Origin: Thermoplasmata archaeon
Lineage (GTDB): Archaea > Thermoplasmatota > Thermoplasmata > Lutacidiplasmatales > UBA184
Direction: 5' to 3'
NCBI GenBank assembly: GCA_035502015.1
Contig: DATJVA010000001.1
Coordinates: 676-64,675, forward strand
Length of the DNA stretch: 64,000 nt
Of this stretch, positions 2,987-22,140 are shown piece by piece; positions within the stretch are counted from its first letter, which is position 1; each line of letters begins with the position of its first letter. The notes under the pieces were generated by a model that searched no databases, was not told the DNA's origin, and saw nothing but the letters and a program-made list of their open reading frames with translations. The translations under genes and the position numbers were made by a program.

Positions 2987-3013
2987 GAGAACCGCTCCTG
3001 ACCGACCTACGGA

Positions 3014-3373
3014 CTAATCCGACCCGAACGTGCCCAGGACGGCGGCGAGGATCTGGGTCTTCTTGTCGCTCGGACGTCGTCCCTCGCCGACCAGCGCCCG
3101 GTCGGCGGCCTTCTTGCCGTCCGCCAGGATCGCCGCGGCTTCCGTCTCGGTTTCGGTCCGGGCCTGGGTCACGCGGGCGACCCGGTCGCGGTCGGCCGCG
3201 GCCTGGGCCTCCTTCACGGCGGCGGCGGCCTCCGCGCGCAGCCGTGCGATCGACGCCTCGGCGTCCTGCCGTGCGGCCGCCAGGCGCGCATCCCATTCGT
3301 TCTCCGTCGCCTTCACTCGCTTGAGCGCCTCGACCGAGTCGGGCTCGGCCGCGCCGGACGTCGTCGTCGCCAT
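3014..3373 (-). CDS. atpH: A-type ATP synthase subunit H (coiled-coil stator subunit)
   Basis: Start chosen at MATTTSGAAEP..., preceded by GGAGGG at SD spacing. About 119 aa, Ala/Glu-rich coiled coil with ALKRVKATENEW. Lies between atpD and atpI. Confidence 0.55.
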   Translation of the reverse strand: MATTTSGAAEPDSVEALKRVKATENEWDARLAAARQDAEASIARLRAEAAAAVKEAQAAADRDRVARVTQARTETETEAAAILADGKKAADRALVGEGRRPSDKKTQILAAVLGTFGSD

Positions 3374-8500: not shown

Positions 8501-8772
8501 AGCCCCGGCCCGAGCTCGACGCTGAGCGCTTGGCCGGTGCTCTCGACCGGGTCGCCCGGCCGGATACCGGTAGTGTCCTCGTAGACCTGAACGGTGGCCG
8601 TCCCCTCCACGAGGCGGATGATCTCTCCGACGAGGCCCAGCGTCCCCACGCGGACGACGTCGTACATCTTCGCATCGACCAATCCCTCGGCGATGACCAC
8701 GGGGCCGGAAACTCGTGCTACCGATCCTGCCATGTTCTTCCCTTCGCTCGATTCGAGTGATTCGTAAGACAC
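5596..8772 (-). CDS. atpA: A-type ATP synthase catalytic subunit A, interrupted in-frame by a 458-aa intein (extein about 600 aa)
   Basis: N-extein ends ...GPFGSGK (P-loop), followed by Cys. C-extein resumes at [32 protein letters not shown] after ...LLHN. The ATG abuts the atpF stop. Confidence 0.95.
6652..8025 (-). mobile_element. Full-length intein with LAGLIDADG homing-endonuclease domain, inserted in the AtpA P-loop (GPFGSGK|C ... HN|T; VMA-a-type site)
   Basis: Cys+1 at codon 250 (nt 8025-8023), verified against the DNA. Terminal His-Asn at codons 706-707, next residue Thr. Two LAGLIDADG blocks ([10 protein letters not shown] and [14 protein letters not shown]). Confidence 0.85.
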
Positions 8773-8774
8773 GT

Positions 8775-9110
8775 CTACGTCGCGACCGAGAGCGTCACGC
8801 CCAGGACCCGCTTCGCAAGCGCCTCGATGCTCTCGACCTCGTATTCACCGCTCGGAGTGGGAACGAAGACGACGAGCGGGTGGAGGGAGGCGTCGGCGCT
8901 GGCGCGCTGGGACTCGGAGAGCTGCGCGCGGATCGATTGGGTCGCAATGACGAGCGAGAAACCGCCTGCCATCGCCCTTTCGAACTCCGAAACCGCGTTG
9001 TCCGGCGTGACCTCGACGACGTCCTTGAGGCCGATCAGGCGGAACCCGATCGCGAGCTCCCGCTCGCCGACCACGATCGTACGCCCCGGCTCTTTCGGCG
9101 TCTCGGGCAC
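8775..9110 (-). CDS. atpF: A-type ATP synthase subunit F
   Basis: 111 aa. First gene of the minus-strand atpF-A-B-D-H-I string. The F-subunit-like sequence ends 2 nt before the atpA ATG. Confidence 0.8.
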   Translation of the reverse strand: MPETPKEPGRTIVVGERELAIGFRLIGLKDVVEVTPDNAVSEFERAMAGGFSLVIATQSIRAQLSESQRASADASLHPLVVFVPTPSGEYEVESIEALAKRVLGVTLSVAT

Positions 9111-9129
9111 GGTAGCGTCGGCGGAGCCC

Positions 9130-9146
9130 CAGCGTATTTAAGGCCT
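9130..9146 (-). promoter_or_regulatory. TATA-like element (TTAAATA on coding strand) about 28 nt upstream of the atpF ATG; probable leaderless promoter of the atpFABDHI operon
   Basis: Forward gtatttaagg at 9134-9143. No SD before the atpF ATG at 9110. Confidence 0.35.
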
Positions 9147-9767
9147 ACCGGAGGCGCGCTGACGGTGGACCGGTCGAGGAGCCACTTCCCCCGGAAGTAG
9201 GAGCGCCGGAGGGACGGTTTCCCGAACGCACGCGTCGATCAATGAGGCGAACCGACGCTCTCGGGTCTCGGGGCGGACGGCGCTCATCACCCAGAACGTT
9301 GCCCGCTTTCGGAACCCCCGGTTCCGAGACCGGAAGAACCGGTCCGCGGGGGCGTTCGCCCGAAGGCGTGCCGAGAATGCCGGAGAGAAGCGGTAGGTGC
9401 CCCCGCTCGTGAACTGCCGGGGTTGATGGGTCGGGCGCTGCTCGAACGCGCGACGTCCCGACGGGCGGACCCGACCCGCCCGGTCGAGCTCGGCGAACCG
9501 TCGCCGGTTCACCTCGCTCCAGTTGCTCCCCGGTCGGCGGGGCGTGAAGCGGTTCGCGTAGCGGTCGTCGTCGATCCGGCGAATGGTGGTGTCGATCCAT
9601 CCGAAGCAGAGCGCCTCGTCGACCGCCTCGGGGTAGACCACTCCCCGGCGGTCGGTGTGCGCCTTGTAGAACCCGACCCAGAGCTCGTTCGCTTCGGCGT
9701 GGTGGGCCTCAAACCACGCGCGGAGCTCGCTCGGGGAATCGAAGAAGCGAGCGGGTACGACCGACAT
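9138..9767 (-). CDS. YdeI/OmpD-associated family protein (PF13376-like)
   Basis: Start at MSVVPARFFDSPSELRAWFEAHH..ELWVGFYK...EAVDEALCFGWID...RFTPRRPGSNWS..N, which matches the conserved core of that family. The upstream Arg/Pro-rich ORF extension was rejected. Confidence 0.55.
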   Translation of the reverse strand: MSVVPARFFDSPSELRAWFEAHHAEANELWVGFYKAHTDRRGVVYPEAVDEALCFGWIDTTIRRIDDDRYANRFTPRRPGSNWSEVNRRRFAELDRAGRVRPSGRRAFEQRPTHQPRQFTSGGTYRFSPAFSARLRANAPADRFFRSRNRGFRKRATFWVMSAVRPETRERRFASLIDACVRETVPPALLLPGEVAPRPVHRQRASGRP

Positions 9768-9778
9768 CGTCGGGGCGG

Positions 9779-10057
9779 TTACTTGTAGACCGAGAAGTGG
9801 ACGTGGTTCTCGTCGTCGGTGATCAGGATGCACTCGCCTTCGCACTCGAAGAGACACGCCTCGCAGACGATGCATTCCGGGCCGTTCACCGCGAGCGACT
9901 TCTCGCCCCGGAACTGGAACTTCGCCCCGACCGCGGGGTCGTCGACCACGTCCGGGACCTGGTCGCGGGGACGAAGGTCGAAGACGTTCACCGGGCAGAC
10001 GTCCTTGCAATGCGAGCAGCCCGTGCACTTGGCGATGTCGATGTCGACTTGGACCAT
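9779..10057 (-). CDS. 2x[4Fe-4S] ferredoxin
   Basis: 92 aa with CTGCSHCKDVCP and CIVCEACLFECEGEC cluster motifs. Confidence 0.8.
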   Translation of the reverse strand: MVQVDIDIAKCTGCSHCKDVCPVNVFDLRPRDQVPDVVDDPAVGAKFQFRGEKSLAVNGPECIVCEACLFECEGECILITDDENHVHFSVYK

Positions 10058-10222
10058 CGGTCGCCTCTGGGCCCGCCGGGGCGGGGCGGACTATTAGGGT
10101 TTTCCCGCCGCCGGTATCGGCTTTTCCAGGGCCCGCGCAGTCCGTTCCAGCCCCTTCCCGAGCCCCTTCCTATCGAGCGCAATCTTTACCGGGCCGGACG
10201 ACGTTCCGGTGGGCAGCAGCGG

Positions 10223-10990
10223 ATGACCGATATCCTCCTGGGGACGAGCGGTTGGGACTACCCGGAGTGGGTCGGGCGGGTCTACCCGCCCCGGGGGGCG
10301 ACCGACCGGCTCCGGTACTATGCGGGGATGTTCTCGATCGTCGAGGTCAACTCGACGTTCTACCGTCTGCCTCCCCCTTCGGTCGCGGTGTCGTGGGTGA
10401 AGCGGACCCCGGCGGGGTTCCGGTTCGCCGCGAAGTTCCCCCAGACGATCACCCACGACCTTCGCCTCGTCCGGACCGAGGAGGAGCTCGCCCGGTTCCT
10501 CGCCGTCCTGAAACCGATTCGGGAGGCGGGCAAGTTCGCCGCGGCGCTCCTCCAGCTCCCTCCGTCCCTCCCGTTCGAACCGACGACCGTCCGGCGCTTC
10601 TACGAGTCGCTGCCCCGCGACCTCCCCGTCGCCGTCGAGTTTCGCGAGCGTTCGTGGCTGAACCCGGTGTCGGTCGCGCTCCTGCGCGAGTTCGGCCTCG
10701 CCTACGTCATCGTGGACGGCCCGCACCTACCGGTGGCGCTCGAGGTGACCGCCCCGTTCGCGTACATCCGCTGGCACGGTCACGGGAACCCACTGTGGTA
10801 CGACTACACCTACTCGCCCGCGGAGCTCTCCGCATGGGTCCCGCGCGTCCGCGCGCTCAGCGAGAACGTGGCGACCCTCTACGGGTTCTTCAACAACCAC
10901 TTCCGGGGCGACGCGGCGGTGAACTGCCGAACGCTCTCGGAGGAGCTCGGGCTCTCGCCTCCGGTCCGTCGGGGCCGGCTCGACGCGTGA
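10223..10990 (+). CDS. DUF72 (UPF0759/YecE-like) family protein
   Basis: MTDILLGTSGWDYPEW...FYRLP... matches the DUF72 hallmark. Confidence 0.8.
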   Translation: MTDILLGTSGWDYPEWVGRVYPPRGATDRLRYYAGMFSIVEVNSTFYRLPPPSVAVSWVKRTPAGFRFAAKFPQTITHDLRLVRTEEELARFLAVLKPIREAGKFAAALLQLPPSLPFEPTTVRRFYESLPRDLPVAVEFRERSWLNPVSVALLREFGLAYVIVDGPHLPVALEVTAPFAYIRWHGHGNPLWYDYTYSPAELSAWVPRVRALSENVATLYGFFNNHFRGDAAVNCRTLSEELGLSPPVRRGRLDA

Positions 10991-11004
10991 GCGACCCGGG
11001 ACAC

Positions 11005-11934
11005 CTAGCCGGTCCCGCTCGGTCGCGCGGCGACGGGAGCGCCGGATAGCGGTGCGGCGACCGGTGTCCCGGGCACTGGCTGTGCGGCGGAGACGGTCGT
11101 GTTTCCGCAGGCGGCCGTGTTGTTGATGGTGACGCCGCTCACCGCGCCCGTCAAGGCGTTCACGGTGGCGTTGAACTGTTCACCGGTCCCGGAGGGCGTT
11201 GCGCTCAGCGCGCACGTGGTGTAGATGACGGACCATTCGGCGGGGATGCTCTGGCCGAACAGCGAAACGCTCCCGAGAAGCGCGAACTCGCCGGAGGCGT
11301 CCGGGTGGGCCGAAAGGAACGTGGCCGCGTACGTCCATACCGCAGCCGCCGCCGCCGAACTGTCGATCACGTTCCCCGGAATGGGGGTGAGCAGCTGGGC
11401 GAAGATGGCGCACTCCGTCCCCGTGATGGTGGCGAGCACCGACCCGCTGCCGTTGATCACCGAGGCGATCGCGAGCGCGTCCGTCCCGTTGCGGTAGCCG
11501 AACTCCCATGCGGAGGCGGCGCCCGAAGAACGGTTGCCGGTGTAGGGCGGCACGGTGTACGTGCTCGCACTGGTAACGATGGTGTAGGTGCAACCCGCGG
11601 AGCTCAAGTTGCCGAGGGCCGAGGTGTTCGTCGGGATCGACTCTCCCGTGGGGGTGACGAGGCCCGCGGCGAACAGCAGGGTCCAGCCCCCGCCCTGGAA
11701 TCCGGACATCGTGCGGTCGGCGACCGGTCGAGCCCCGGAGTAGGTGAGGGCTCCGCTGGCCCCGGAGCCGGACGATGTGAGGGTCGGCAGGACGACGAAC
11801 GCGACCAGAAGGACCACGACGACCACGACCGCCACCATCACGTAGAGCATCTTTCGGCCCGGGGACGCGGGGGTGGTCGGCGGGGCGGGTGGGGACGGGG
11901 ACGCCGGAGGATTGGTCGGGGTCGACATGGGCAC
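11005..11934 (-). CDS. Membrane-anchored Ser/Thr/Ala-rich extracellular protein, probable surface glycoprotein
   Basis: Single N-terminal TM (MLYVMVAVVVVVVLLVAFVVL). Low-complexity S/T/A/G-rich ectodomain with at least 9 N-x-S/T sequons. Alternative start at MLYVM (nt 11850). Confidence 0.45.
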   Translation of the reverse strand: MPMSTPTNPPASPSPPAPPTTPASPGRKMLYVMVAVVVVVVLLVAFVVLPTLTSSGSGASGALTYSGARPVADRTMSGFQGGGWTLLFAAGLVTPTGESIPTNTSALGNLSSAGCTYTIVTSASTYTVPPYTGNRSSGAASAWEFGYRNGTDALAIASVINGSGSVLATITGTECAIFAQLLTPIPGNVIDSSAAAAAVWTYAATFLSAHPDASGEFALLGSVSLFGQSIPAEWSVIYTTCALSATPSGTGEQFNATVNALTGAVSGVTINNTAACGNTTVSAAQPVPGTPVAAPLSGAPVAARPSGTG

Positions 11935-12099
11935 CTTCCCGACAGAGACGCCGGAGCGGCGGGATAAGGGTTGGCATTTTCCCGAAGTTAGCGGAGGCCA
12001 CCGTCCCTGAAACCCCCCGTTCTCAGGGCTGTTTCAACCTCTCCCGAACCGCCGCTTTAGAGCGGCCCGGCCGATTCTCTTCTCGGTCGCTCTCGATCG

Positions 12100-12966
12100 A
12101 TGATGGCCGACGCTGTGCTCACCGAGCCCGCACCGGAGGAGCTCCTCGCGGAGGAGCGCTTCCGATTCGAGCCCCGGCCGGTCCCTGCCTCCGCTCCTCC
12201 GGCCCATCCGAGGCTCGCTCCCCATCCCCGGCGGACCCGCGCTGTCCCGCTCCTTCCGACGGAGCCGTCGCTCTTCCCGTGGCTCGCGCGCCGGTTCGCT
12301 CCGGGCGAGGCGACCGTCTGGACCGGCCCGTCGGTCGCGGTCGAGCCGGTCCTCGAGCTCCTCTACGCCGGGAACGCCCGGGCCCGGGGCCGGATCTCGC
12401 TCCTCGAGGGCGAGAACCGGTTCCATCCGTATCGCATCGGCGAGCTCGGCCGGTCGTTCGGGGTCGATGCCGCGGAGACGCTGCGCCGCATCCGCCTCGC
12501 CCGCGCGTTCACCGCCTACCAGATGGTCGCGCTCGTGGACGGGTGGGCCGCGGAGGTCCGACGCCACGCCCCGACGCTCCTGGTCGGCCACGGCATTCCC
12601 GCCCTCTTCGCGGACGCGGAGATTCCCGACGACGAACGCACCGCGCTCCTCGGCCACGTCGCTCGGACCCTCGCCGCGCTCGCCCGCGAGGTCCGCGTCC
12701 CGCTCCTGTTGACGCTCACTCCGGAGGAGTTCGCACGGTTCCGCGCGCTCGCCGACGAGGGACCTCCCTGGTCGGACCTGATCACGTTCGTCCGAGGCCC
12801 CGGGGTCCTGCGCCTGCGCGCGCTCCGGGACGACGGCCGGGTCGCCCTCGTGCCCCGTCCGCCCGGCCAGACCGGCATGGAACAGTTCGGCGGAGAGTTC
12901 GCCGAGGAGGTGATCGCGTGGGACGTACCGCACCGACCTACCGCCAGGCGCTCGAGGAGCGGATGA
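12100..12966 (+). CDS. Hypothetical protein; weak resemblance to a RecA/RadA/KaiC-fold domain with degenerate Walker A (TVWTGPSVAVEP)
   Basis: Coding-like codon usage. First gene of a coupled string ending in PolB. Has GP..... where GPPGSGKT would be expected. The domain call is inference only. Confidence 0.4.
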   Translation: MMADAVLTEPAPEELLAEERFRFEPRPVPASAPPAHPRLAPHPRRTRAVPLLPTEPSLFPWLARRFAPGEATVWTGPSVAVEPVLELLYAGNARARGRISLLEGENRFHPYRIGELGRSFGVDAAETLRRIRLARAFTAYQMVALVDGWAAEVRRHAPTLLVGHGIPALFADAEIPDDERTALLGHVARTLAALAREVRVPLLLTLTPEEFARFRALADEGPPWSDLITFVRGPGVLRLRALRDDGRVALVPRPPGQTGMEQFGGEFAEEVIAWDVPHRPTARRSRSG

Positions 12967-13172
12967 AGCGCTGGGACGAGTTCGCGCGACTCCTCACGAG
13001 CCCCGAGGAGCGGGAGGCGTTCGAGATGGTCCGGACCGGCGCCCGCCGCTACGTCGCGCAGGCGACGTACGTCGGGAGCCCGGACCTCCTAGAGTCGATC
13101 CTCCTCTCCGTCCTCACCGACCTCGCGGTCCGGGTCCGGGCCGAGGCTTCGACGCCGGACGAACATCGCTGA
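12963..13172 (+). CDS. Small hypothetical protein (69 aa)
   Basis: Its ATG overlaps the upstream TGA (ATGA at 12963-12966). It ends 2 nt before the PolB ATG. MKRWDEFARLLTSPEEREAFEMVRTG... Confidence 0.35.
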   Translation: MKRWDEFARLLTSPEEREAFEMVRTGARRYVAQATYVGSPDLLESILLSVLTDLAVRVRAEASTPDEHR

Positions 13173-13174
13173 CG

Positions 13175-15520
13175 ATGGCGGCGTCCCCGGCCGCGACGGC
13201 GGTTGCACCGGACGGCTGGCTCCTCGACATCACGGAGAGCGACGACGGTCGGTCGGTCGTCCTCTGGACGAAGGAGCGGCGGAGCGGCCGCGTTCGGAGG
13301 AGCGCGGTCGAGTACCGGCCCCCGTTCCTCGTCTCGGGTACGCGGAACGACCTCGCGCTCCTCGCCCGGCGATTGACCGACCACCCCGACGTCGAGTCGG
13401 TCGCGCTCGGTTCGGGCCGCCCGTCGCTCTACGACCGGCGGAACCGCCCCGTCCTGTCGGTCGTCCCGGCCCGCAACCCGGCCCGCCGCACGCTCGCGCG
13501 AAGCGTCGATGCGCTCGGCGGCTACGAGCGGTTCTCGCTCTACGACGTCGACCTCGGGCCACCGCAGCTCTACCACCTCGCCCATGCCCTCTACCCGTTC
13601 GCGCCCGTGGTCGGGCGGGCACCCGCGCTCCGCGCGACCGAGCCGCCCGAGACGATCGACTACGCGTCCCCGCCGTTGCGCGTCGCCCCGCTCGAGGTGC
13701 ACCTCGCCGGGGAGCGGAGAGGTCGCATTCCGCCTCCGGACGCGCGGCTCGGCGCGGTGCGGCTCGACGACGTGACGATCGACGGGCCGGAGGAGGACGT
13801 CCTGCGCGCGCTCGTCGACGCGCTCGCGCGCACCGACCCGGACGTCCTCCTTACGGAGGGCGGTGACGCGTTCGACCTTCCCTGGCTGTACCGCCGCGCG
13901 GCCGCCTGCGGGCTCTCGCCCGCGGAGTTCACCCTGGGGCGCGAGCGCGTGAGGTTCCGGCCGACCCGACCGGCCCGTTCGTTCGAGTCGTACGGACGGG
14001 TCCTCCACCGGGACGCCTACTATCCGCTGCCCGGCCGGTTCCACGTCGACCGGGAGAACTCGTTCCTCTACCGCGACGCCGAGATCGCCGGGCTCGTTGA
14101 CGCCGCCCGGCTCTCCCGCCTCTCGCTCACGACGGTCGTGCGCCAATCGCCGGGGACCTGCTTCACCGCGATGGAGATGGCCCATGCGCTCGAGCTCGGG
14201 GCGCACGTCCCCTGGAAGAAGAACCGGCCCGAAGGGTTCCGGCGGGCGGACCGGCTCGTCGCCGCCGACCGCGGCGGGGTGATCTTCCTCCCGCCGGTCG
14301 GGGTGCACGACCACGTCGACGAGTTCGATTTCGCGAGCCTCTACCCGCACATCATGGTCACGAAGAACCTCTCCGCGGAGACGCTCGAGTGCCGATGCTG
14401 TCCGGAAAGCCCGCTCCGCGCGCCCGGCCTCGGCTACCGCTCCTGCACGCGGCGCACCGGCCTCATTCCCCGTACCCTCGCGCCGCTCCTCGAGCGTCGC
14501 TTGGCCTACAAGGCGGCGCTCAAACGGCCGGGGGTCGAGCCGGAGGAAGCGGTCCGCCTGAAGCGGCGGGTCAAGATGCTCAAGTGGATCCTCGTCACCG
14601 CGTTCGGCTACCAGGGATACCGGAACGCCCGGTTCGGGCGGATCGAATGCCACGAGGCGATCAACGCCTACGCACGCGACCTATTGGCCCGGCTCCTCCC
14701 GGAGGCGGAGCGGGCCGGCTACTCGGTCCTCCACGGGATCGTCGATTCCCTCTGGCTGCGCCCGAACGACGTCGCGCACCCGCCGGACCCGGAGGCGTTC
14801 GCGCGCAGGATGAGCGAGAAGGTCGGGATGCCGCTCGGCTACGAGGGGCGGTACCGCTGGATCGTCTTTCTGCCGGCGGTGACCCACGGGCTCGGTGTCC
14901 CGAACCGCTACTACGGCTACTACGAGCACGGCGAGTTCAAGCTGCGCGGGATCGGCGCCCGACGGCACGACACGACCGGGCTCGTCCGCCGGTTCGAGGC
15001 GGAGGTGCTCGCGCTCCTGAGGACCGCCCGGGACGCGAACGGGGTCCGCGCGCTCGTGCCGCGCGTGCTGGCCCGCGCCGACCTGTTCGCCCGAGAGGTC
15101 CGCGTCGGGTCGTGGCCCGTCGACGAGCTCCTCATCGCCCACCGGATCGGCCAGGCACCCGAGGCGTTCGTCACGTTCACCGACTCGGTCGCGGCGTTGC
15201 GGCAGCTCCGCGAGGCGGGGGCGGAGCGGGGGCCGGGCGAGGTGGTGCGGTTCGTCATCCTCGACCGGCGGAGCCGATCGTTCCGTGACCGGGTACGACC
15301 GGGCGAGCTCCTCGAGGGGAACGAACGGTACGATACCGGTGCGTACCTCGAGATCCTCGCCCGCTCCGCGGAGACCCTGCTCGCTCCGCTGGGGGTCGAC
15401 CGCGAGCAGCTCCGTGCGCGCTGGGGGATCGCGCCCGCCCCCGAGCGGGAGGAGTACCACTCTCCGGAGGAGCTCCACCAGTCGCGACTGGAACCGGCCG
15501 CGCCCGACGTGAGATATTAA
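13175..15520 (+). CDS. polB: Family-B DNA polymerase paralog, predicted catalytically inactive (motif C HGIVDS instead of Y.DTD.; Exo I D->P)
   Basis: 781 aa. Motif A DFASLYPHIMVTKNLSAETL is conserved. The KxxxNSxYG region is degenerate (KWILVTAFGYQG). Motif C YSVLHGIVDSLWL has lost the first catalytic Asp. The exonuclease I DxE is replaced by APLEVHL. Confidence 0.8.
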   Translation: MAASPAATAVAPDGWLLDITESDDGRSVVLWTKERRSGRVRRSAVEYRPPFLVSGTRNDLALLARRLTDHPDVESVALGSGRPSLYDRRNRPVLSVVPARNPARRTLARSVDALGGYERFSLYDVDLGPPQLYHLAHALYPFAPVVGRAPALRATEPPETIDYASPPLRVAPLEVHLAGERRGRIPPPDARLGAVRLDDVTIDGPEEDVLRALVDALARTDPDVLLTEGGDAFDLPWLYRRAAACGLSPAEFTLGRERVRFRPTRPARSFESYGRVLHRDAYYPLPGRFHVDRENSFLYRDAEIAGLVDAARLSRLSLTTVVRQSPGTCFTAMEMAHALELGAHVPWKKNRPEGFRRADRLVAADRGGVIFLPPVGVHDHVDEFDFASLYPHIMVTKNLSAETLECRCCPESPLRAPGLGYRSCTRRTGLIPRTLAPLLERRLAYKAALKRPGVEPEEAVRLKRRVKMLKWILVTAFGYQGYRNARFGRIECHEAINAYARDLLARLLPEAERAGYSVLHGIVDSLWLRPNDVAHPPDPEAFARRMSEKVGMPLGYEGRYRWIVFLPAVTHGLGVPNRYYGYYEHGEFKLRGIGARRHDTTGLVRRFEAEVLALLRTARDANGVRALVPRVLARADLFAREVRVGSWPVDELLIAHRIGQAPEAFVTFTDSVAALRQLREAGAERGPGEVVRFVILDRRSRSFRDRVRPGELLEGNERYDTGAYLEILARSAETLLAPLGVDREQLRARWGIAPAPEREEYHSPEELHQSRLEPAAPDVRY

Positions 15521-15542
15521 CCCCCGAATCGGTGGACGGTCG

Positions 15543-17039
15543 GTGGTCGACCACTCGCGCCGTCGCTCCCGCAAGGGTCCCGCCCGCCGGACCCCACCGC
15601 CCGCGGCCGGCTCTCCGTCGGCATCGGCCCGGGCCGCGGCGATCCGGGAGAGCGTCCAGGACGGCGCCATCGAGGACATCGGCCCGGTCCTGTTCGCGCT
15701 CAACGACCCGGTCCCCGGGGTCCGGGAGACGGCGGCGGTCGCGCTCGGTCGGCTCAAGGACCCGCGCGGATGCACAACGCTCGCGATCGCTCTCGCCGAC
15801 CCGGACGCGCGGGTGAGGGCGGCGGTGGTCGAGGCGCTCGGCGGGATCGGCCGGGCCGAGAGCCGGGAAGCGCTCGAACGCGCGCTCGACGACCCGGAGG
15901 CCGACGTGCGGGCGAAGGCGGTGTTCGCGCTCCTCGGGCTCGGGGACGCGCGGTCGAGGCCCGCGCTCGACCGTCGGGTCGATGACTCCGCGCCGGCGGT
16001 GCGGCGCGCGGTCGCCGCCGCGCTCGGCCGTATCGACCCGGATGCGTCGTTCCCCTCGCTCGAGCGTCTACTTGCCGACCCGATCGACCGGGTGCGGCGC
16101 GAGGCGGTGCTCTCGGTCGGTCGGTCGTCGGACCCGAGCCGGCTGGCCATCGTCCGCCGGTACCTGGGGGACCCGGCACGCCGGGTGCGCGTCGCGGCAG
16201 CCGTCGTGGTCGGGCGCCACCGCGACCGAGACAGCGTCGCATCGCTGCTCGCACTCCTTTCGACCCCCGAGACCTGGGAGAAGCCGGCGGTGCTCGTCGC
16301 GCTCGGCCGGATCGGGGACCCGTCCGCGGTACCGGCGCTCATCGAATGGGCCGAGCATCCGTCGCACTGGATCCGGGTCTGCGCGGTCCACGCGCTCGGC
16401 GACATGGGAGGGCCCGAGGCCCGGTCGGTCGCTCTCGCCCACCTCCACGACCCGTACTGGTCGGTCCGCGGCGCCGCCGCGGTCGCGCTCGGGACAGTCG
16501 GACGGCCGGACGACCTCTCCCCGCTCCTTTCGCTCCTGAAGGACGACCATCCGTGGGCCCGACGCGGGGCGATCTACGCCCTCGGGTCGCTCGGGCTCGC
16601 CGAGGCGGCCCCCCGGCTGCGCGAAGAGCTCCTGGACGCCGCCGCGGAGGTGCGCCTCGCGGCGGTGTGGGCGCTCGGGCGTCTCCAGGACGACGGGGCC
16701 CGCGACGACCTCATCCGCCTCCTCTACCAGACCCGGTCCGCACCAATCCGCCCCGCGCCGTCCGGCGCCGCCGAGGCGGAGGAGCGACTGGCCTCCGACG
16801 CGGAGAGCCGCCTCTTCGACGCCGTCGTCCAGGCGCTCGGCCGTCTTTCCCACGGCCTTCCCGACCCGCTCATCCATCGCTCGCTCGTGGACGCCCTCGG
16901 CCGGCTGAGCGATGAGGACCTCGACCGTCTCGCCCGCCTCCCGCTGCCCGAGGTCCGGTCCGACCAGCCGGCGCCGACGCTGCGCGCGCTGTTCGAGACC
17001 GCGCTCCCGTCCACCGCCGACGACGAGGACAGCTCGTAA
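15543..17039 (+). CDS. HEAT-repeat (PBS-lyase/E-Z type) protein
   Basis: At least 12 repeats of about 30 aa with the ...DP...VR..A..ALG.IG pattern. 23 nt downstream of the PolB stop. Confidence 0.75.
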   Translation: MVDHSRRRSRKGPARRTPPPAAGSPSASARAAAIRESVQDGAIEDIGPVLFALNDPVPGVRETAAVALGRLKDPRGCTTLAIALADPDARVRAAVVEALGGIGRAESREALERALDDPEADVRAKAVFALLGLGDARSRPALDRRVDDSAPAVRRAVAAALGRIDPDASFPSLERLLADPIDRVRREAVLSVGRSSDPSRLAIVRRYLGDPARRVRVAAAVVVGRHRDRDSVASLLALLSTPETWEKPAVLVALGRIGDPSAVPALIEWAEHPSHWIRVCAVHALGDMGGPEARSVALAHLHDPYWSVRGAAAVALGTVGRPDDLSPLLSLLKDDHPWARRGAIYALGSLGLAEAAPRLREELLDAAAEVRLAAVWALGRLQDDGARDDLIRLLYQTRSAPIRPAPSGAAEAEERLASDAESRLFDAVVQALGRLSHGLPDPLIHRSLVDALGRLSDEDLDRLARLPLPEVRSDQPAPTLRALFETALPSTADDEDSS

Positions 17040-17977
17040 TGCTGCGGGACCTTCGGCGGGCGGACGGTCCACCGTTCCTCGCGCTGATGGACCGCGGGTT
17101 TCCCGAGGAGTCCGCGCTGCTCGGCAACCGGCCCGAGGAGTTCGAGAAGATCTTCCGGCGCATCTTCCGCTGGGACACCCGTCTTCTCCTCGGCCTGATG
17201 GGCCTGTTCGGCCGGCCGATCGTTCGGGCGCTGGTCGTGGAGGCGGACGGCCACGTCGTGGCGACGACGCTCATCACGTTCCCTCCGGGCTCGGCGTACA
17301 TCAGCAACGTCACGGTCGACCCGGACCACCGCCGTCGAGGGTACGCCCGCGCGATGCTCGAGGAGGCCCGCCGCACGGCGCGCCGGAGGAAGCTCAGGTT
17401 CCTCGTGCTCGACGTACTCGAGCACAACACGGGGGCGCGGGCGCTCTACGACTCGCTCGGATACCAGCCGCTTCGCGCCCGCGTGCAACTGGTCCAGGAT
17501 GCGACGGCGAAGCTCAGCACGGCCCGACCGTCCAGTTCGTCGATCCGCCCGATGCGTCGGTCGGACATCCCGACGCTCGTGGAGATCGCCCGACGGCAGA
17601 GCCCCTCGGCGGTCGAGAAGGTGCTGCCGACGGGGCCGGACCGTTTTCTGGCGAGTGGCGTCGCGAACCGCATGCTGGCGTCCGAGGAGGCCTCCTGGGT
17701 CGTCGACCGGGGGCAGGGGCCCGAGGCGCACGTCGCCGCCACCGTGTCGGAGGCGATGGAGGCGGCGCACCTTACCGCGCCCACCCTCTCCGATTCGGTC
17801 GACGACCGCCTCGCGATCGAGCTCGTCTCGACAGCGGGGGCCTGGTGCGCGACCCGCAGGTCGCCGAGGATCCTGAGCATGGTCGCCGTCGACAATCCCC
17901 GGGGACGCGCCGCCCTTGAGGCGACGGGATTCCACGATGCCGTCTCGCTCTGGACGCTCTATCGGTCGGTCGACTGA
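17039..17977 (+). CDS. GNAT family N-acetyltransferase (N-terminal GNAT domain plus C-terminal extension)
   Basis: ISNVTVDPDHRRRGYARAMLEEA matches the acetyl-CoA motif. Start overlaps the HEAT stop (TAATG). Confidence 0.7.
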   Translation: MLRDLRRADGPPFLALMDRGFPEESALLGNRPEEFEKIFRRIFRWDTRLLLGLMGLFGRPIVRALVVEADGHVVATTLITFPPGSAYISNVTVDPDHRRRGYARAMLEEARRTARRRKLRFLVLDVLEHNTGARALYDSLGYQPLRARVQLVQDATAKLSTARPSSSSIRPMRRSDIPTLVEIARRQSPSAVEKVLPTGPDRFLASGVANRMLASEEASWVVDRGQGPEAHVAATVSEAMEAAHLTAPTLSDSVDDRLAIELVSTAGAWCATRRSPRILSMVAVDNPRGRAALEATGFHDAVSLWTLYRSVD

Positions 17978-19256
17978 CCGCCCCGCGACCCGGGGCGGTG
18001 TCGCCGTCTACCTCTTTCCCGCTGTGGTGGGTGGAGGGCTCGGGGACATCGAAGAGGTGCTCGCGGCTGGCCGATACCTCGCGCGCGCCGGGTTCCCTCT
18101 CTACCTCTATCGCGCGAAGGGTCGCCCTCTCCCGCCGCACGTGGCCGGTCCGTGGGAGTGGCCGCCGGTCGAGCGGTGTCGAACGCTCCGCCCCCGCGCC
18201 GGGTCGGCGCTCACGGTCTCGCCGTCGTGGGGAGTGAGCTCGGCGCCGAGCCGACCCGCCCGCTTCGGGCGCGGAGGCCCGTGGGAGGTGGAGTGCCGGG
18301 AGGTGGAGGCCGCCTACGGTTCGGAGCGGACGCTCCATATCAGTCTCGAGGAGTTCGCCCGCACGCTGCCGAGCCGGGCCGAGACGCGGGAGCGGTTTCG
18401 GGAAGGCGGGGTACCCGCGCGGGCGATCGGTCCGCGCCTCCGGGTCGCGGAGGCGGCCAAGGAGGTCGAAGCGTTCCGCAGGGCGTACCGGGAGTTCCGC
18501 GGGCTCGACCGACCGAACGTCCTCCACCTGTTCGCGACGTTCCGGCCCGACCGCGCGTTCGCTCGGGAGTTCCCCGAGGCCGTTCAGGTGGGACCTCTCG
18601 GCTCCGGCCACCCCGGTCGGGTCGCGGCGCAGGGCACCTCCCGGGAGTGGGTCTGGTACGCGAGCCCGGCGAGCGCGGAGCGGATCGCCCCGCAGGTCGT
18701 TGCGGGGCTCGCCGGCGCGAAGCCACCGGTACGATTGTTCGTTCGGTCCCCGCGGGCATGGCCGGGGATCGCGGGCGAGACCGGAGTCCAGGTCGTCACT
18801 TCGCCGATCCCACCGAACACGTGGCGCCCCCGTTTCCGGCGCGCCGAGCTGCGCATCGTCACGGGCAGTCGGACCCTGATCGAGGCGATGGAGGTCGGTG
18901 GACCGTTCCTCTACTTCAACGGGGTCCTGGGCCGAGGGTCCGGTCGACGGAGGCACCGTCCCGAGAAGTTCCGGGCCTGGGTCGCCCTCGCGAAGGATGC
19001 CGGAGCATCGCCCGCGCTGCTCCGGGACCTCTCCGACTTCGCCCGGGGTCGACGGGTCACCGAGGTCGTCCGCCGCGCCGCCGCCTCCTCCGACGGCTGG
19101 GCCCGGTTCCCGCCGGACCTGGGGCCGGTCGGGTTCCCTCCCGAGCGGCGGGACGCCGGCACGGTGGTGACGGCCGTGGCCAGGGAACTCGCTCGTCCCG
19201 CATCTCGGGCCGCCGAGGTCGTCGCTCGATGGCGTGCCTCGCATCCGTATCCTTAA
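17937..19256 (+). CDS. Hypothetical protein, possibly GT-B-fold glycosyltransferase-like; start uncertain
   Basis: ORF with coding-like composition. RTLIEAMEVGGPFLY resembles the C-terminal GT-B E-x7-E region. No in-frame ATG or GTG near the 5' end other than 17916 or 17937. Confidence 0.3.
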   Translation: MPSRSGRSIGRSTDRPATRGGVAVYLFPAVVGGGLGDIEEVLAAGRYLARAGFPLYLYRAKGRPLPPHVAGPWEWPPVERCRTLRPRAGSALTVSPSWGVSSAPSRPARFGRGGPWEVECREVEAAYGSERTLHISLEEFARTLPSRAETRERFREGGVPARAIGPRLRVAEAAKEVEAFRRAYREFRGLDRPNVLHLFATFRPDRAFAREFPEAVQVGPLGSGHPGRVAAQGTSREWVWYASPASAERIAPQVVAGLAGAKPPVRLFVRSPRAWPGIAGETGVQVVTSPIPPNTWRPRFRRAELRIVTGSRTLIEAMEVGGPFLYFNGVLGRGSGRRRHRPEKFRAWVALAKDAGASPALLRDLSDFARGRRVTEVVRRAAASSDGWARFPPDLGPVGFPPERRDAGTVVTAVARELARPASRAAEVVARWRASHPYP

Positions 19257-19285
19257 TCGGTCCGTCCCTCTCCTAGCGACGTCCC

Positions 19286-20395
19286 ATGCCGTCCGAGGAC
19301 GCCACTCCACCGGCCGTCGCTCGGGCGATCGTCGGAAGCGCGGTTGCTGCCCGACGGGGAGAGCACGTCGTCGTGGTCTCCTGGAACCACACCCTTCCCT
19401 GGGCGGCCGCCTGCGTCACCGAACTGCGCCGCGTCGGAGCCCGCGCGCTCCTCCTTCTCGAGGACGAGGGGGCGTTCTGGCGAAGCGTGGATAGCGCGGC
19501 GCCGACCCGTCGATGGGCGGGACTCACGCGACCGGTCCGTGCCGCGCTCGCCCATTCCGACGCGCTCGTCTACTTCCCCGGACCGGCCGACCGACCGCGG
19601 CTCCATGGTCTGCCTACCCACCTCCTCGCACCGTTCGTGGGAGCGGATGACGAGTGGTTCGCGGCGACCCGCCGCTCGGGTGTGAGGGCGGTCCGATGTC
19701 TGCTCGGATACGCCTCGGACGCGCAGGCCGAGCACTGGGGCGTCCCCGGGGCGATGTGGCGGAGCCAACTGATCCGAGGGATCACCGATGTCGATTACGG
19801 AGACCTCCGCAACGACGGCGAACGGGCTGCCGCGCTTCTCGCCCACGGTCGGGAGCTGCGTCTCACGGCGGCGAACGGCACTGACCTCAAGCTCCGCCTC
19901 CGGGGCCGTGGCCCTTGGGTGGACGACGGAGTCGTCGACGCCGCGGACCGCCGGCGGGGCCGGCTGCTGGCGAGCTCGCCGGCCGGCGCGGTGGTGGTGG
20001 CGGTCGACGAGGGGTCCGCCGAAGGGACGGTGGTCGCGAACCGCCCGAGCTACCTTTCGCCCGGCCGGGTCGACGGCGCGCAGTGGGAGGTCGAGGCCGG
20101 TCGCCTCCGCAACTACTGGTACACCGACGGGGGAGGGGCGTTCGAGACCGAGTTCTCGCGCGCGCCTCGCGGCCGGGAGACGGTCGGGCTGTTCGCCCTC
20201 GGACTGAATCCGGCATTACCCCCCGGAGTACCGCAGGCCGAGGACCAGGAGGCCGGGACGGTCACGCTGGCGATCGGAGGGAACACCCTCTACGGGGGAC
20301 GGAATCGGTGCCGGTTCCTCTCGTGGATCACCGTCGGGGAGGCGACGGTCGCCGTGGATGGCGCGCCGCTCTGCGACCGCGGCAAGGTCCTCTAG
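19286..20395 (+). CDS. Aminopeptidase, M29 (AmpS/PepS 'thermophilic metalloprotease') family-like
   Basis: From memory of AmpS: N-terminal ..G..VVV......P...A...E....GA, central NGTDL, and C-terminal TLAIGGN.. / ..DG blocks are co-linear. Confidence 0.5.
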   Translation: MPSEDATPPAVARAIVGSAVAARRGEHVVVVSWNHTLPWAAACVTELRRVGARALLLLEDEGAFWRSVDSAAPTRRWAGLTRPVRAALAHSDALVYFPGPADRPRLHGLPTHLLAPFVGADDEWFAATRRSGVRAVRCLLGYASDAQAEHWGVPGAMWRSQLIRGITDVDYGDLRNDGERAAALLAHGRELRLTAANGTDLKLRLRGRGPWVDDGVVDAADRRRGRLLASSPAGAVVVAVDEGSAEGTVVANRPSYLSPGRVDGAQWEVEAGRLRNYWYTDGGGAFETEFSRAPRGRETVGLFALGLNPALPPGVPQAEDQEAGTVTLAIGGNTLYGGRNRCRFLSWITVGEATVAVDGAPLCDRGKVL

Positions 20396-20984
20396 AACGG
20401 GAGCGGGCCGGCGGGCCGGTCGGCGATTCTTCGACCGCCCCGCGTCCCGGGTCGCCCGTGACCTTCTCGGGGCGGGGTTGGTCGTCCGGTCGGGCCGGAC
20501 GAAGAGGTCGGTCCGCATCGTCGAGACCGAAGCGTACGTACGGAACGACCCGGCGAGCCACGCCTTCCGGGGACCCACGACGCGGAACCGGTCGATGTTC
20601 TCCTTGCCGGGCACGCTCTACGTGTATCGGATCCACCAGGTCGTCTGCGCGAACCTGGTCGCTCGATGGGGAGAGGCGGTGCTGGTGCGGTCCGGCGCCG
20701 CTGTCGGCGTCCCCCCCGCGACCGCCTCGGGGCCCGGCCGGTTATGTCGGTATCTTGGGATCACGCACGCGGACGACGGGTCGGATGCCGTGGCCGGGGG
20801 TCGTGTCGAGGTTCGCCTTCCCAGGACGCCATCCCCTCCAGTGGTCGTCGGTCCCCGTATCGGTATCCGGAAGGCGGTCGACCGACCGCTCCGGTTCTAT
20901 GTCGCCGGCGAACCGGCCGTCTCTCGTCCGCGTCCCGTCCAGCGGTCCACGAGGGCGGCCCAACGGCCGCGCTCCGGCGACTGA
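20358..20984 (+). CDS. mpg: 3-methyladenine DNA glycosylase (Mpg/AAG family)
   Basis: FFDRPASRVARDLLG...RIVETEAY...DPASHAFRGPTTRNRSMF.LPGTLYVYRIHQVVCANLV is the Mpg signature. The annotated ATG overlaps the upstream gene by 38 nt, so the true start may be later. Confidence 0.75.
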   Translation: MARRSATAARSSRTGAGRRAGRRFFDRPASRVARDLLGAGLVVRSGRTKRSVRIVETEAYVRNDPASHAFRGPTTRNRSMFSLPGTLYVYRIHQVVCANLVARWGEAVLVRSGAAVGVPPATASGPGRLCRYLGITHADDGSDAVAGGRVEVRLPRTPSPPVVVGPRIGIRKAVDRPLRFYVAGEPAVSRPRPVQRSTRAAQRPRSGD

Positions 20985-20995
20985 GGACGGGCTAC

Positions 20996-21157
20996 CTACT
21001 TCAGCTTCTTCCAGTCGTACCCACGCCGTCGCGCGGTGTTGCCGAAGCCGCACGACGCGCAGACGTTCTTCTGGCGGTGGTACGAGTGGCGACCGCAGCG
21101 GCGGCAGATGATGTGAACGATCTTTCCTCCGCGGCGGGACGGTGTTCCCTTTCCCAT
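20996..21157 (-). CDS. rpl37e: 50S ribosomal protein L37e
   Basis: MGKGTPSRRGGKIVHIICRRCGRHSYHRQKNVCASCGF... C4 zinc-ribbon L37e. AAGGAGG SD 6 nt upstream. Only the 3' 53 codons of ORF 20996..22777 are real. Confidence 0.9.
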   Translation of the reverse strand: MGKGTPSRRGGKIVHIICRRCGRHSYHRQKNVCASCGFGNTARRRGYDWKKLK

Positions 21158-21168
21158 GGTTCGCCTCC

Positions 21169-21381
21169 TTACGGTGAGATGTAGACGATCGAATCGCCGC
21201 GCACGAGCGTCAGCCCGGAGCGAGGTGTCACTTGGTCCTTCACGACCTCTTCGGCCTGAGAGAGGACCAGGTTCAAGTGCTGGTCGAACGCGTCCAGATT
21301 GCCCCGGAACGAGCGTCCGCCCTTCAGCTCCACCAGGACGCGCTTGTGGAGGCTCTGCTGCAGGGCATCGAGCGGCTTCAT
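21169..21381 (-). CDS. Sm-like (LSm) archaeal protein
   Basis: 70 aa. Sm1/Sm2 motifs (RVLVELKGGRSFRGNLDAFDQHLNLVL). The LSm-L37e gene pairing is conserved in archaea. Confidence 0.9.
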   Translation of the reverse strand: MKPLDALQQSLHKRVLVELKGGRSFRGNLDAFDQHLNLVLSQAEEVVKDQVTPRSGLTLVRGDSIVYISP

Positions 21382-21413
21382 CGTTCGTCGCGAGGGAGCG
21401 GTGCAGACCGGGT

Positions 21414-21431
21414 GGGCTTTTTAACGGTTGG
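21414..21431 (-). promoter_or_regulatory. Promoter of the LSm-L37e operon: CCAACCG-TTAAAAAG (BRE/TATA-like) on the coding strand
   Basis: Forward gctttttaacggttgg. Shares the 11-mer TTAACGGTTGG with the S15 promoter at 28241-28251. Confidence 0.35.
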
Positions 21432-22140
21432 GGCCGACGACCGACCGGCGTGCCTTCCCCGTCCACCCCTCCAGAGTGGACACCACCGCGAGCGCCTCGG
21501 CCCGGGACGGACGCCGGGCCGCCCCCGCGCGGGAGAGAACCGCCTCGAGGTGACGCGCGAGGGAGACGGGTGCGGACCGCGCTCGGAGCTGGAAGAACCG
21601 GCCCGGGAGAACCTGGGGCAACACTTCCTCGAAGAGCATTCGCTCGAACCGGCCGACCGCCTCGTGCCGAGCCCGAAGTCGCCTCGGGTGGCGCTCCGCG
21701 TCCCGACGGGCGCGGGCGGCCCGCTCGCGGGCGGTCGTGTGGAGGTAGACCGTGAGGTCGGGGACCCCGAGGGCACCTCTCCGGACGAGCGACCGGGCAC
21801 TCCGGACGAGGGTCCGGCCCACGGACGCCGGGGAGCCACCGATCGTGACGAGGCCGAGCGTGTACGTGACGGGACCGAGGAAACCGGTGTCGGCCAGCAC
21901 GGTCTCCCCCTGCTCGCACAGCCGGCGCGCTTCCCGGTAGCGATGAGTCTCCTCTGCGAGCAGAGTCTCCTCGAGCCGCAAGAGCTCGAGAGAGGAGTCG
22001 AACTCGATCGACGGGGACGGGTCGAGGCGGTCGACGGCCTCGGAGAGGGGTCGCCAGCCGTATCGTCGCGCCGCGACGCGGACGAGCGTCGACTTTCCGG
22101 AGGCAGAGCCCCCCTCGAGCGCCACCAGCCGGCCCCGCAT
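21421..22140 (-). CDS. Thymidylate-kinase-fold P-loop kinase (divergent paralog)
   Basis: Start at MRGRLVALEGGSASGKST (Walker A). Also has Tmk-like LADTGFLGPVTYTLG and PDLTVYLHTTARERAARA. The upstream Arg-rich ORF extension was rejected; alternative start at 22200. Confidence 0.5.
   Translation of the reverse strand: MRGRLVALEGGSASGKSTLVRVAARRYGWRPLSEAVDRLDPSPSIEFDSSLELLRLEETLLAEETHRYREARRLCEQGETVLADTGFLGPVTYTLGLVTIGGSPASVGRTLVRSARSLVRRGALGVPDLTVYLHTTARERAARARRDAERHPRRLRARHEAVGRFERMLFEEVLPQVLPGRFFQLRARSAPVSLARHLEAVLSRAGAARRPSRAEALAVVSTLEGWTGKARRSVVGPNR

Follow-up and report, generated by a model that had tools for sequence, protein, structure and literature searches.

Archaeal genes for an inactive RadA paralog, a small helical protein of arCOG07300, and the B-family DNA polymerase PolB2 form a conserved predicted operon (Makarova et al. 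2014, PMC4104785). This trio has been known since 2013/14, and in 2025 it was modelled as a heteropentamer of one PolB2, one iRadA, and three PPB2 subunits (Timinskas et al., PMC11791011), the study from which the names iRadA and PPB2 are taken and which reports AlphaFold models of 40 complexes. According to that work, the hallmarks of PolB2 are the replacement of the first Asp of the DxD motif, usually by Ile or Leu, a decayed exonuclease domain, and a D(K/R) motif placed after a Rad51-oligomerisation-like element that docks on iRadA, while the hallmark of PPB2 is an ‘MGRT’ arm with Arg3 and Arg9. In addition, clamp-binding motifs are found more often in iRadA than in PolB2, in an ‘either-or’ pattern, and the neighbours of the operon include DUF72, which is enriched beside polB2, SRAP, and orc1/cdc6. 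Here we describe a 64-kb window, i.e., the whole stretch of DNA that was analysed, from a Thermoplasmata metagenome-assembled genome (MAG) contig of ~70% GC, and we consider it very likely that positions 12100-15520 of this window are a type-1a PolB2 operon, iRadA-PPB2-PolB2, the equivalent, built on an archaeal B-family enzyme, of a translesion ‘mutasome’. The system is already known, and the locus is an ordinary member of the PolB2 mutasome family. The new points are minor ones, namely a corrected start for PPB2, a candidate operator that is duplicated in a split operon, a probable separate promoter for the downstream HEAT gene, the predicted GT-B fold of a 439-aa protein, and a clade-wide synteny that reaches from DUF72 to a methylpurine DNA glycosylase (MPG).

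The family has been characterised experimentally only in Sulfolobales, to which this locus adds a well-resolved Thermoplasmata example. Dpo2 of S. islandicus, whose motif C reads I-I-D, is as active in nucleotide incorporation as the replicase Dpo1 (Feng et al. 2022, PMC8764526); it has no exonuclease activity and extends mismatched or lesion-opposed ends very efficiently (PMC8764526). Earlier genetics cited in the same paper makes Dpo2 solely responsible for damage-induced mutagenesis, and in other B-family structures the second Asp of motif C and the Asp of motif A bind the metals (PMC8764526). The window shares with the archaeal PolB2 mutasome / Dpo2 operon (S. islandicus SiRe_0614-0616) the three gene families, the I-x-D motif C with its second Asp, the dead exonuclease, the D(K/R) motif after FxxA, the MGRT arm of PPB2, a P-loop-less RadA homolog with a C-terminal box resembling a PCNA-interacting peptide (PIP), and the DUF72 neighbour. 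The two differ in gene order, which is iRadA-PPB2-PolB2 (type 1a) in the window and PPB2-PolB2-iRadA (type 3a) in Sulfolobus. Moreover, the PolB2 of the window, at 781 aa, has a fuller N-terminal/exo-like region, there is no orc1/cdc6 neighbour, the candidate operator is a dyad, GAAAC-N17-GTTTC, and not the single element ANTTTC, and a clade-specific array running from HEAT to MPG lies downstream.

Two better known translesion polymerases offer functional parallels, and by analogy the PolB2 system would work like both while belonging to neither. The Pol V mutasome of E. coli (UmuD'2C-RecA-ATP) also joins a damage-tolerance polymerase to a RecA-family subunit through a filament-like oligomerisation motif, brings the N-terminal arm of a small oligomeric subunit near the active site, and binds the clamp (PMC11791011). 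However, its catalytic subunit is of the Y family, its RecA is the active housekeeping recombinase instead of a dedicated inactive paralog, the UmuD' dimer is unrelated to PPB2, and it is UmuC that carries the clamp motif. The eukaryotic Pol zeta (Rev3-Rev7(2)-Pol31-Pol32) is likewise a multisubunit B-family enzyme with inactivated proofreading, which acts as an extender after lesion insertion and is responsible for damage-induced mutagenesis, but its accessory subunits are unrelated, none of them belongs to the RecA family, and the motif C DxD of Rev3 is intact.

The three genes of the operon, with the evidence for each, are:

12100..12966, + strand: iRadA, 288 aa (Pfam Rad51, PDB RadA/DMC1, Foldseek)
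12918..13172, + strand: PPB2 (arCOG07300 / DUF8156), 84 aa (conserved MGRT start and Shine-Dalgarno sequence)
13175..15520, + strand: PolB2, 781 aa (Pfam, PDB, NCBIfam NF004418, motif alignment)

The locus was compared with 82 loci fetched with a PolB2 profile (labelled L001 onward), which come from Thermoplasmata, Methanomassiliicoccales, Bathyarchaeia, Methanoperedens, Hadarchaeota, and bacteria, and with three further relatives (L083, L084, and L085). The three genes are syntenic in most of the 82 loci, in five archaeal lineages and in bacteria, and the close homologs of the window genes are all from ‘Thermoplasmata archaeon’ MAGs. Every sequence-level hallmark of the PolB2 mutasome that was examined occurs at 12100-15520.

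The polymerase itself groups by sequence with PolB2 and not with PolB1 or PolB3. It matches Pfam DNA_pol_B (E 2e-19) and, across residues 23-749, NCBIfam NF004418 (E 1e-123), it is homologous to archaeal PolB chains of the PDB across residues 200-750 (E 4.5e-38), and it is 75-90% identical to many Thermoplasmata MAG proteins. Its first 450 aa can be aligned over their whole length with a haloarchaeal PolB2 of the published table (Natrialba, E 3e-45), but only from residue 200 onward with the PolB3 of Thermococcus, KOD (E 6e-23). Its motif B-C string (HGIVDSLW, IVD) is almost the same as that of the Thermoplasmata PolB2 entries in the table of Timinskas et al. (PMC11791011), which gives IVD and IID as motif C strings of PolB2. 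An initial annotation of this DNA had assigned the gene to the ‘inactivated PolB’ family of Rogozin (2008), now PolB2, and the family signatures together with NF004418 bear this assignment out. The closest solved structures are those of archaeal PolB3 (Thermococcus/Pyrococcus, PDB 1TGO and 4K8Z), which share palm, fingers, and thumb with the query (E ~1e-38 over 310-748) and differ from it in having intact Exo I-III, YxDTD, and KxxxNSxYG motifs and a C-terminal PIP box of their own, with no iRadA or PPB2 partners.

The catalytic motifs were aligned across 56 diverse PolB2 relatives and the Thermococcus KOD polymerase, whose reference sequence is consistent with the alignments to PDB chains. 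The positions of interest are:

14327-14329, + strand: D385, motif A, equivalent to KOD D404; D in 56/56, motif DFASLYP intact
14582-14584, + strand: K470, motif B, equivalent to KOD K487; K in 55/56, motif KWILVTAFG
+ strand: V474 and F477, motif B, equivalent to KOD N491 and Y494; V in 52/56 and F in 56/56
14732-14749, + strand: motif C HGIVDS, i.e., H520-G-I522-V-D524-S
+ strand: H520, motif C, equivalent to KOD Y538; H in 55/56
+ strand: I522, motif C, equivalent to KOD D540; I/L in 54/56
+ strand: D524, motif C, equivalent to KOD D542; D in 56/56
13664-13672, + strand: A164 and P166, Exo I, equivalent to KOD D141 and E143; variable, and Pro in 52/56
+ strand: Exo III of KOD, deleted; the Y/D segment is deleted in 56/56
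14237-14248, + strand: FxxA motif F355-R-R-A358, Rad51-oligomerisation-like at the sequence level
14267-14272, + strand: D365-R366, the D(K/R) motif; D365 in 56/56, R/K in 53/56

The alignment confirms what had been annotated by eye, namely a preserved motif A, a motif C that reads HGIVDS, and the replacement of the acidic residue of Exo I; to this it adds the deletion of Exo III and an Exo II Asp that is not conserved across the 56 sequences. The description of KxxxNSxYG as degenerate holds for its Asn and Tyr, but not for the catalytic Lys, which is retained as K470. Only the exonuclease site of this PolB2 is destroyed. The polymerase site keeps each residue that Dpo2 keeps (D385, K470, and D524), and has Ile where motif C would have its first Asp. 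Because these three residues are invariant or nearly so, and because the gene evolves under purifying selection (ratio of nonsynonymous to synonymous substitution rates, dN/dS, ~0.15 vs L001), the protein is very probably an active, proofreading-deficient extender polymerase that serves damage tolerance as Dpo2 does.

Three further observations concern the same protein. D292-R293, in GRFHVDR, was considered as the D(K/R) motif and rejected, as conservation holds for D292 but not for a K/R at the position after it; D365-R366 fits. After motif A, a CxCC...C cluster (C406, C408, C409, and C424; 14390-14446) is nearly invariant in the 56 PolB2 sequences, the same region of Thermococcus PolB having two Cys only, and this cluster may be a metal site. 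Lastly, several PolB2 representatives (P0243, P0244, P0269, P0272, and others) are ~1250-1300 aa long, with a match that breaks in two near query residue 477, within motif B (FGY), which suggests that inteins are inserted in the PolB2 of other lineages.

The first gene of the operon had been read as a RecA/KaiC-fold protein with a destroyed Walker A motif. Its product matches Pfam Rad51 (E 2.7e-7, 30.6 bits against a cutoff of 22) and RadA/DMC1/Rad51 chains in the PDB (E 2e-5). The AlphaFold model, which has a predicted local distance difference test (pLDDT) score of 59 overall and a confident core at residues ~90-220, was used for the Foldseek search that had been proposed for this gene, and the best 50 matches are all Rad51/DMC1/RadA cores (E ~2e-8, root-mean-square deviation 3-4 Å, ~160 columns). 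These three lines of evidence agree on a RecA-superfamily protein, of the Rad51/RadA type and not KaiC. The Walker A position reads GPSVAVEP (12325-12348) where GxxGxGK[TS] is expected, and the Walker B position reads TLLVGHGI (12574-12597) where hhhhD is expected; the former is kept so in the lineage, as is TLLVGHG of the latter. Matches in the PDB, Pfam, and NCBIfam begin at residue 93-97, which corresponds to the ATPase core, and the N-terminal helix-hairpin-helix domain of RadA is missing; residues 1-60 are Pro/Ala-rich, little conserved, and modelled with pLDDT <50. Sequence and model alike indicate that iRadA is a Rad51/RadA-fold protein devoid of the P-loop/ATPase site.

Near the C-terminus of iRadA there is a PIP-like box, Q257-T-G-M-E-Q-F-G264 (12868-12891), in which the second aromatic residue is missing. 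The pattern Q-x-G-[MIL]-[ED]-x-F-G recurs in 120/120 iRadA homologs of the lineage, and the similar QSHLEAFG of another Thermoplasmata iRadA was scored as a PIP (PMC11791011). A PIP-like motif was also looked for at the C-terminus of PolB2, where none was seen, so that the pair conforms to the published ‘either-or’ pattern.

As for PPB2, it had been taken as a 69-aa product starting from the ATG of the ATGA at the end of iRadA (12963-12966), but this ATG is the internal Met16 of a longer protein, which starts at GTG 12918 and has 84 aa and the N-terminus MGRTAPTYR, with both Arg3 and Arg9. The start MGRT[AV]PTYR is kept in ~70/82 loci (Thermoplasmata, Methanomassiliicoccales, Bathyarchaeia, Methanoperedens, and bacteria), the NCBI annotation of the relative L001 has the 84-aa form, and the GTG is preceded by a perfect ribosome-binding site that recurs before PPB2 in most related loci:

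12906..12914, + strand: Shine-Dalgarno sequence GGAGGTGAT for PPB2, within the iRadA coding sequence, conserved in related loci

The position of this sequence inside iRadA, the 49-nt overlap of PPB2 with the 3' end of iRadA, and the 2-nt gap between PPB2 and PolB2 show translational coupling directly in the sequence, PPB2 being coupled to iRadA through this strong Shine-Dalgarno sequence. The dN/dS of PPB2, 0.12, indicates purifying selection here too. With its 84 aa the protein is in the size range of the family (~80-100 aa), whose members are expected to be three-helix proteins that form trimers. A PF26485 match is precomputed for homologs that are as much as 94% identical, whereas neither the 69-aa nor the 84-aa form matched anything in Pfam or NCBIfam; the same Pfam copy also misses homologs with a precomputed DUF8156 assignment, so the local library seems to be without the DUF8156 model. 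The overlap also makes 12918-12966 a dual-coding segment, in which the last 16 codons of iRadA (the EEVIAWDVPHRPTARRSRSG tail) also encode, in a different frame, the MGRTAPTYRQALEER arm of PPB2; the conservation of the iRadA tail is probably due to this constraint.

Taken with the published models and with the biochemistry and genetics of Sulfolobus Dpo2, these features suggest an assembly of one PolB2, one iRadA, and a PPB2 trimer. In such an assembly PolB2 would dock on iRadA through FxxA, in the way that Rad51 subunits bind one another, one PPB2 would insert its N-terminal arm between PolB2 and iRadA, beside D365-R366 and the DNA, and iRadA would tether the complex to PCNA. Mismatched or lesion-opposed primer ends could then be extended with no proofreading, leading to damage-induced mutagenesis, and expression would probably be damage-inducible through the GAAAC-N17-GTTTC dyad upstream of the promoter. 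Several points weigh against this reading. The activity is extrapolated from Sulfolobus enzymes that are ~30-40% identical at best, the Asn and Tyr of motif B and the Tyr of motif C are replaced (V474, F477, and His520), and the architecture of the complex rests on published AlphaFold models. The single-chain model of iRadA is of low confidence outside residues 90-220, and its PIP-like box ends in F-G and not in two aromatics. Finally, the stretch from PolB2 to HEAT shows no oligo-T terminator, which makes read-through into the downstream genes possible. If the preferred reading is right, the annotation of these genes should be corrected from a dead polymerase to a probable error-prone translesion polymerase complex.

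The region upstream of the operon contains two candidate regulatory elements:

12009..12035, + strand: dyad GAAAC-N17-GTTTC, candidate operator (dyad search of the window and related loci)
12054..12063, + strand: TATA-like box GCTTTAGAGC, inferred promoter (spacing kept in relatives)

The GCTTTAGAGC box lies 36 nt before the ATG of iRadA, and since relatives have GCTTTAGAGC or CTTAAG at 35-36 nt before the start, it is the presumed promoter of the iRadA operon. The dyad, located 20 nt upstream of it, is the sole match of a strict search of the 64-kb window; a second site was found nowhere in the window, the region before HEAT included. The same strict search over 1.38 Mb of related loci gave 24 matches, 14 of them in the clade at 54-113 nt upstream of iRadA. 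The spacing within the clade is GAAAC-N(15-19)-GTTTC, and in the remaining close relatives, in the group with 77-79% identity, a variant palindrome is seen, GGAAC...GTTCC with GTTTCAAC. L013 has two genes for membrane proteins between iRadA-PPB2 and PolB2, and there the dyad is present in two copies (5407-5432 and 9906-9931), the second of which has similar flanks and lies directly before PolB2. This is good circumstantial evidence that the dyad is an operator which keeps the three genes co-regulated, also when the operon is split. Its half-site resembles ANTTTC, the element through which Orc1-2 induces dpo2 in Sulfolobus (PMC6061795), although ANTTTC is a single element and the dyad is not. 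The dyad is thus a testable candidate for a damage-response operator in this phylum.

Downstream, the genes continue on the same strand. The five co-directional, tightly spaced ORFs (open reading frames) called at 12100-17977 have the junctions previously described, i.e., ATGA at 12963-12966, 2 nt before PolB, 22 nt before HEAT, and a TAATG overlap between HEAT and GNAT. The operon had been thought to end at GNAT, but the array runs on, giving eight co-directional genes at 12100-20984 on the + strand, from the Rad51-like gene through the methylpurine DNA glycosylase. The genes around the trio and the inferred promoter of the downstream array are:

10223..10990, + strand: DUF72 protein (TIM-barrel, UV-damage-endonuclease-like; PF01904 E 1.3e-64)
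15512..15521, + strand: TATA-like box AGATATTAAC, inferred HEAT promoter (A/T octamer scan and relatives)
15543..17039, + strand: HEAT-like repeat protein (alphaRep/MTH187/PBS-lyase type), 498 aa (Pfam HEAT_2 E 2e-69)
17039..17977, + strand: GNAT acetyltransferase, 312 aa (Acetyltransf_1 E 5e-17; RimI-like E 1.6e-12)
17937..19256, + strand: predicted GT-B-fold glycosyltransferase-like protein, 439 aa (AlphaFold2 and Foldseek)
19286..20395, + strand: M29-like (aminopeptidase T / NicX-like) protein (Peptidase_M29 E 8.7e-8, 31.8 bits)
20358..20984, + strand: methylpurine DNA glycosylase, MPG/AAG family (Pur_DNA_glyco E 8.8e-44)

The HEAT and GNAT identities given earlier are upheld by these matches. 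The PDB matches of the HEAT protein are alphaRep, DOHH, PBS lyase, and YibA, with no AlkD among them, and its identification as an AlkD-like DNA glycosylase was rejected, since the DNA_alkylation score (16.5 bits) is below the cutoff of 21 and the PDB matches are of the alphaRep, PBS-lyase, and DOHH types. The acetyltransferase combines an N-terminal GNAT domain with ~160 C-terminal aa that have no match. The 439-aa protein, which is restricted to the clade and has a 100% identical counterpart among the NCBI proteins of Thermoplasmata MAGs, encoded on a 65-kb contig, has no Pfam or NCBIfam match; its AlphaFold2 model (pLDDT 88) retrieves SenB, GlgM, WaaG, MshA, BshA, and EarP from the PDB by Foldseek (E ~1e-7), and a GT-B glycosyltransferase fold can be predicted for it with high confidence. 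The M29-like protein has no match among PDB sequences. The MPG gene, which overlaps it by 38 nt and is the last of the array, follows M29 in 10 related loci of the PolB2 scan (not in L014) and in L083 and L085, and was missed by the gene callers in L001 and L002. DUF72 is found upstream of the trio in most loci of the lineage.

Whether these genes belong with the polymerase can be judged from their distribution. Across the 82 loci, HEAT-GNAT-GT-B-M29 stands behind no PolB2 with less than 63% identity to the query; within 10 kb of PolB2 it is absent in the sister lineages at 51-61% identity (L015, L017, L018, L019, and L035), as it is in all Methanomassiliicoccales, Bathyarchaeia, Methanoperedens, Hadarchaeota, and bacterial loci. 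In the published neighbourhood table, Acetyltransf_1 is found at 59/1823 PolB2 loci and HEAT is not among the top-20 domains (PMC11791011). The AGATATTAAC box, which contains the stop codon of PolB2 and lies 22 nt before the GTG of HEAT, is one of four sites with at least 7/8 A/T in 9000-21500, all four in intergenic, promoter-like positions. An equivalent box stands 22-23 nt before the HEAT start in 9 relatives, where it tracks the HEAT start and not the PolB2 stop. As this spacing is that of an archaeal TATA box serving a leaderless mRNA, HEAT probably has its own promoter and a leaderless start, and begins a separate unit. HEAT-GNAT-GT-B-M29-MPG is, in short, a neighbouring clade-specific array outside the conserved complex, and of the five-gene complex first proposed there remain iRadA, PPB2, and PolB2, which are tightly coupled and probably form a complex, without HEAT and GNAT.

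The alternative that survives best takes the whole neighbourhood as an extended DNA-damage island working as one functional module, in which, for example, MPG and DUF72 would make or process abasic or incised sites, PolB2 would extend past them, and the HEAT protein, acetyltransferase, and glycosyltransferase would regulate or modify the complex or the clamp. The adjacency is kept in all loci that reach far enough and have a PolB2 at least 63% identical, except L046; PolB2 stays beside HEAT in L013 even though iRadA-PPB2 has split off, the array has at each flank a gene with a bona fide or suspected role in repair (DUF72 and MPG), no obvious terminator separates PolB2 from HEAT, and Acetyltransf_1 does appear among PolB2 neighbours. 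We nevertheless regard this module as unlikely, given its confinement to one clade, the convergent genes that follow PolB2 in L015, the insertions of 4.4 kb between PolB2 and HEAT in L046 and of 4.5 kb between GT-B and M29 in L013, the strong TATA-like box before HEAT, and the lack of the dyad there. Furthermore, HEAT, GNAT, GT-B, and M29 have no detectable DNA-repair signature, the AlkD-type similarity of the first being below cutoff. A Pfam scan of the L046 genes between PolB2 and HEAT, and of the L015 genes downstream of PolB2, was uninformative. Slightly less credence still is due to the specific version in which DUF72, iRadA-PPB2-PolB2, and HEAT-GNAT-GT-B-M29-MPG form an island under the clade-specific GAAAC-N17-GTTTC operator, with read-through from PolB2, and the HEAT scaffold, acetyltransferase, and glycosyltransferase act as accessory or regulatory factors. 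If true, these three would be newly recognised partners or regulators of a translesion polymerase of the B family. As a small lead for experimental work, the clade-wide HEAT-GNAT-glycosyltransferase-M29-MPG adjacency, with DUF72 and MPG at its flanks, may be the sign of a repair island.

The initial annotation had proposed instead that a dead PolB paralog, a dead RecA-like protein, a small protein, HEAT, and GNAT make up a non-enzymatic structural or DNA-binding complex. This proposal follows the view published in 2008-2014, and it draws on the replacement of the first Asp and the Tyr of motif C, of the Asn and Tyr of motif B, and of all exonuclease residues, as well as on the tight spacing of the five genes. 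It is now outdated and, in our estimate, very improbable, for the three phosphoryl-transfer residues that are invariant or nearly so in 56 diverse PolB2 would be hard to explain in a dead enzyme, Dpo2, which has the I-x-D motif C in common with it, equals the replicase Dpo1 in activity (PMC8764526), and HEAT and GNAT accompany PolB2 in one clade only, HEAT with a promoter-like box of its own. The least probable alternative, that the trio serves to initiate or regulate replication, or to restart stalled forks, and not for translesion synthesis (an alternative of Makarova et al. 2014), can point to the many euryarchaeal PolB2 operons that adjoin orc1/cdc6 (PMC11791011, PMC4104785), but no orc1/cdc6 was found in the 64-kb window, Sulfolobus genetics ties Dpo2 to targeted mutagenesis (PMC8764526), and the Sulfolobus paralog Orc1-2 is a DNA-damage regulator that induces dpo2 (PMC6061795), so that damage regulation explains the orc1/cdc6 neighbourhood.

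Apart from the error-prone translesion operon that we favour, some minor features of the window and its relatives may be recorded. PolD and PolB3 were also searched for in the 64-kb window, and none was found. A second, weaker AT-rich box, TATCCTTAAT, at 19248-19257, includes the stop codon of GT-B and lies 29 nt upstream of the ATG of the M29-like gene. As the 4.5 kb inserted in L013 part M29-MPG from HEAT-GNAT-GT-B, these two genes may form a sub-unit under a promoter of their own. In L084, an extra small GNAT gene (2634-3062) lies between DUF72 and iRadA, and in both L084 and L085 DUF72 and the operon point the same way, with no call of a divergent gene for a membrane protein between DUF72 and iRadA, unlike in the window. 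On the - strand, at 5596-8844, the catalytic subunit A of an A-type ATPase has 1082 aa, compared with 586 aa in the close relative L001; within it lies an intein that includes a homing-endonuclease domain of the LAGLIDADG type (Intein_splicing, LAGLIDADG_3). Finally, two thymidylate kinase paralogs are adjacent and overlapping at 43803-44600 and 44587-45306.

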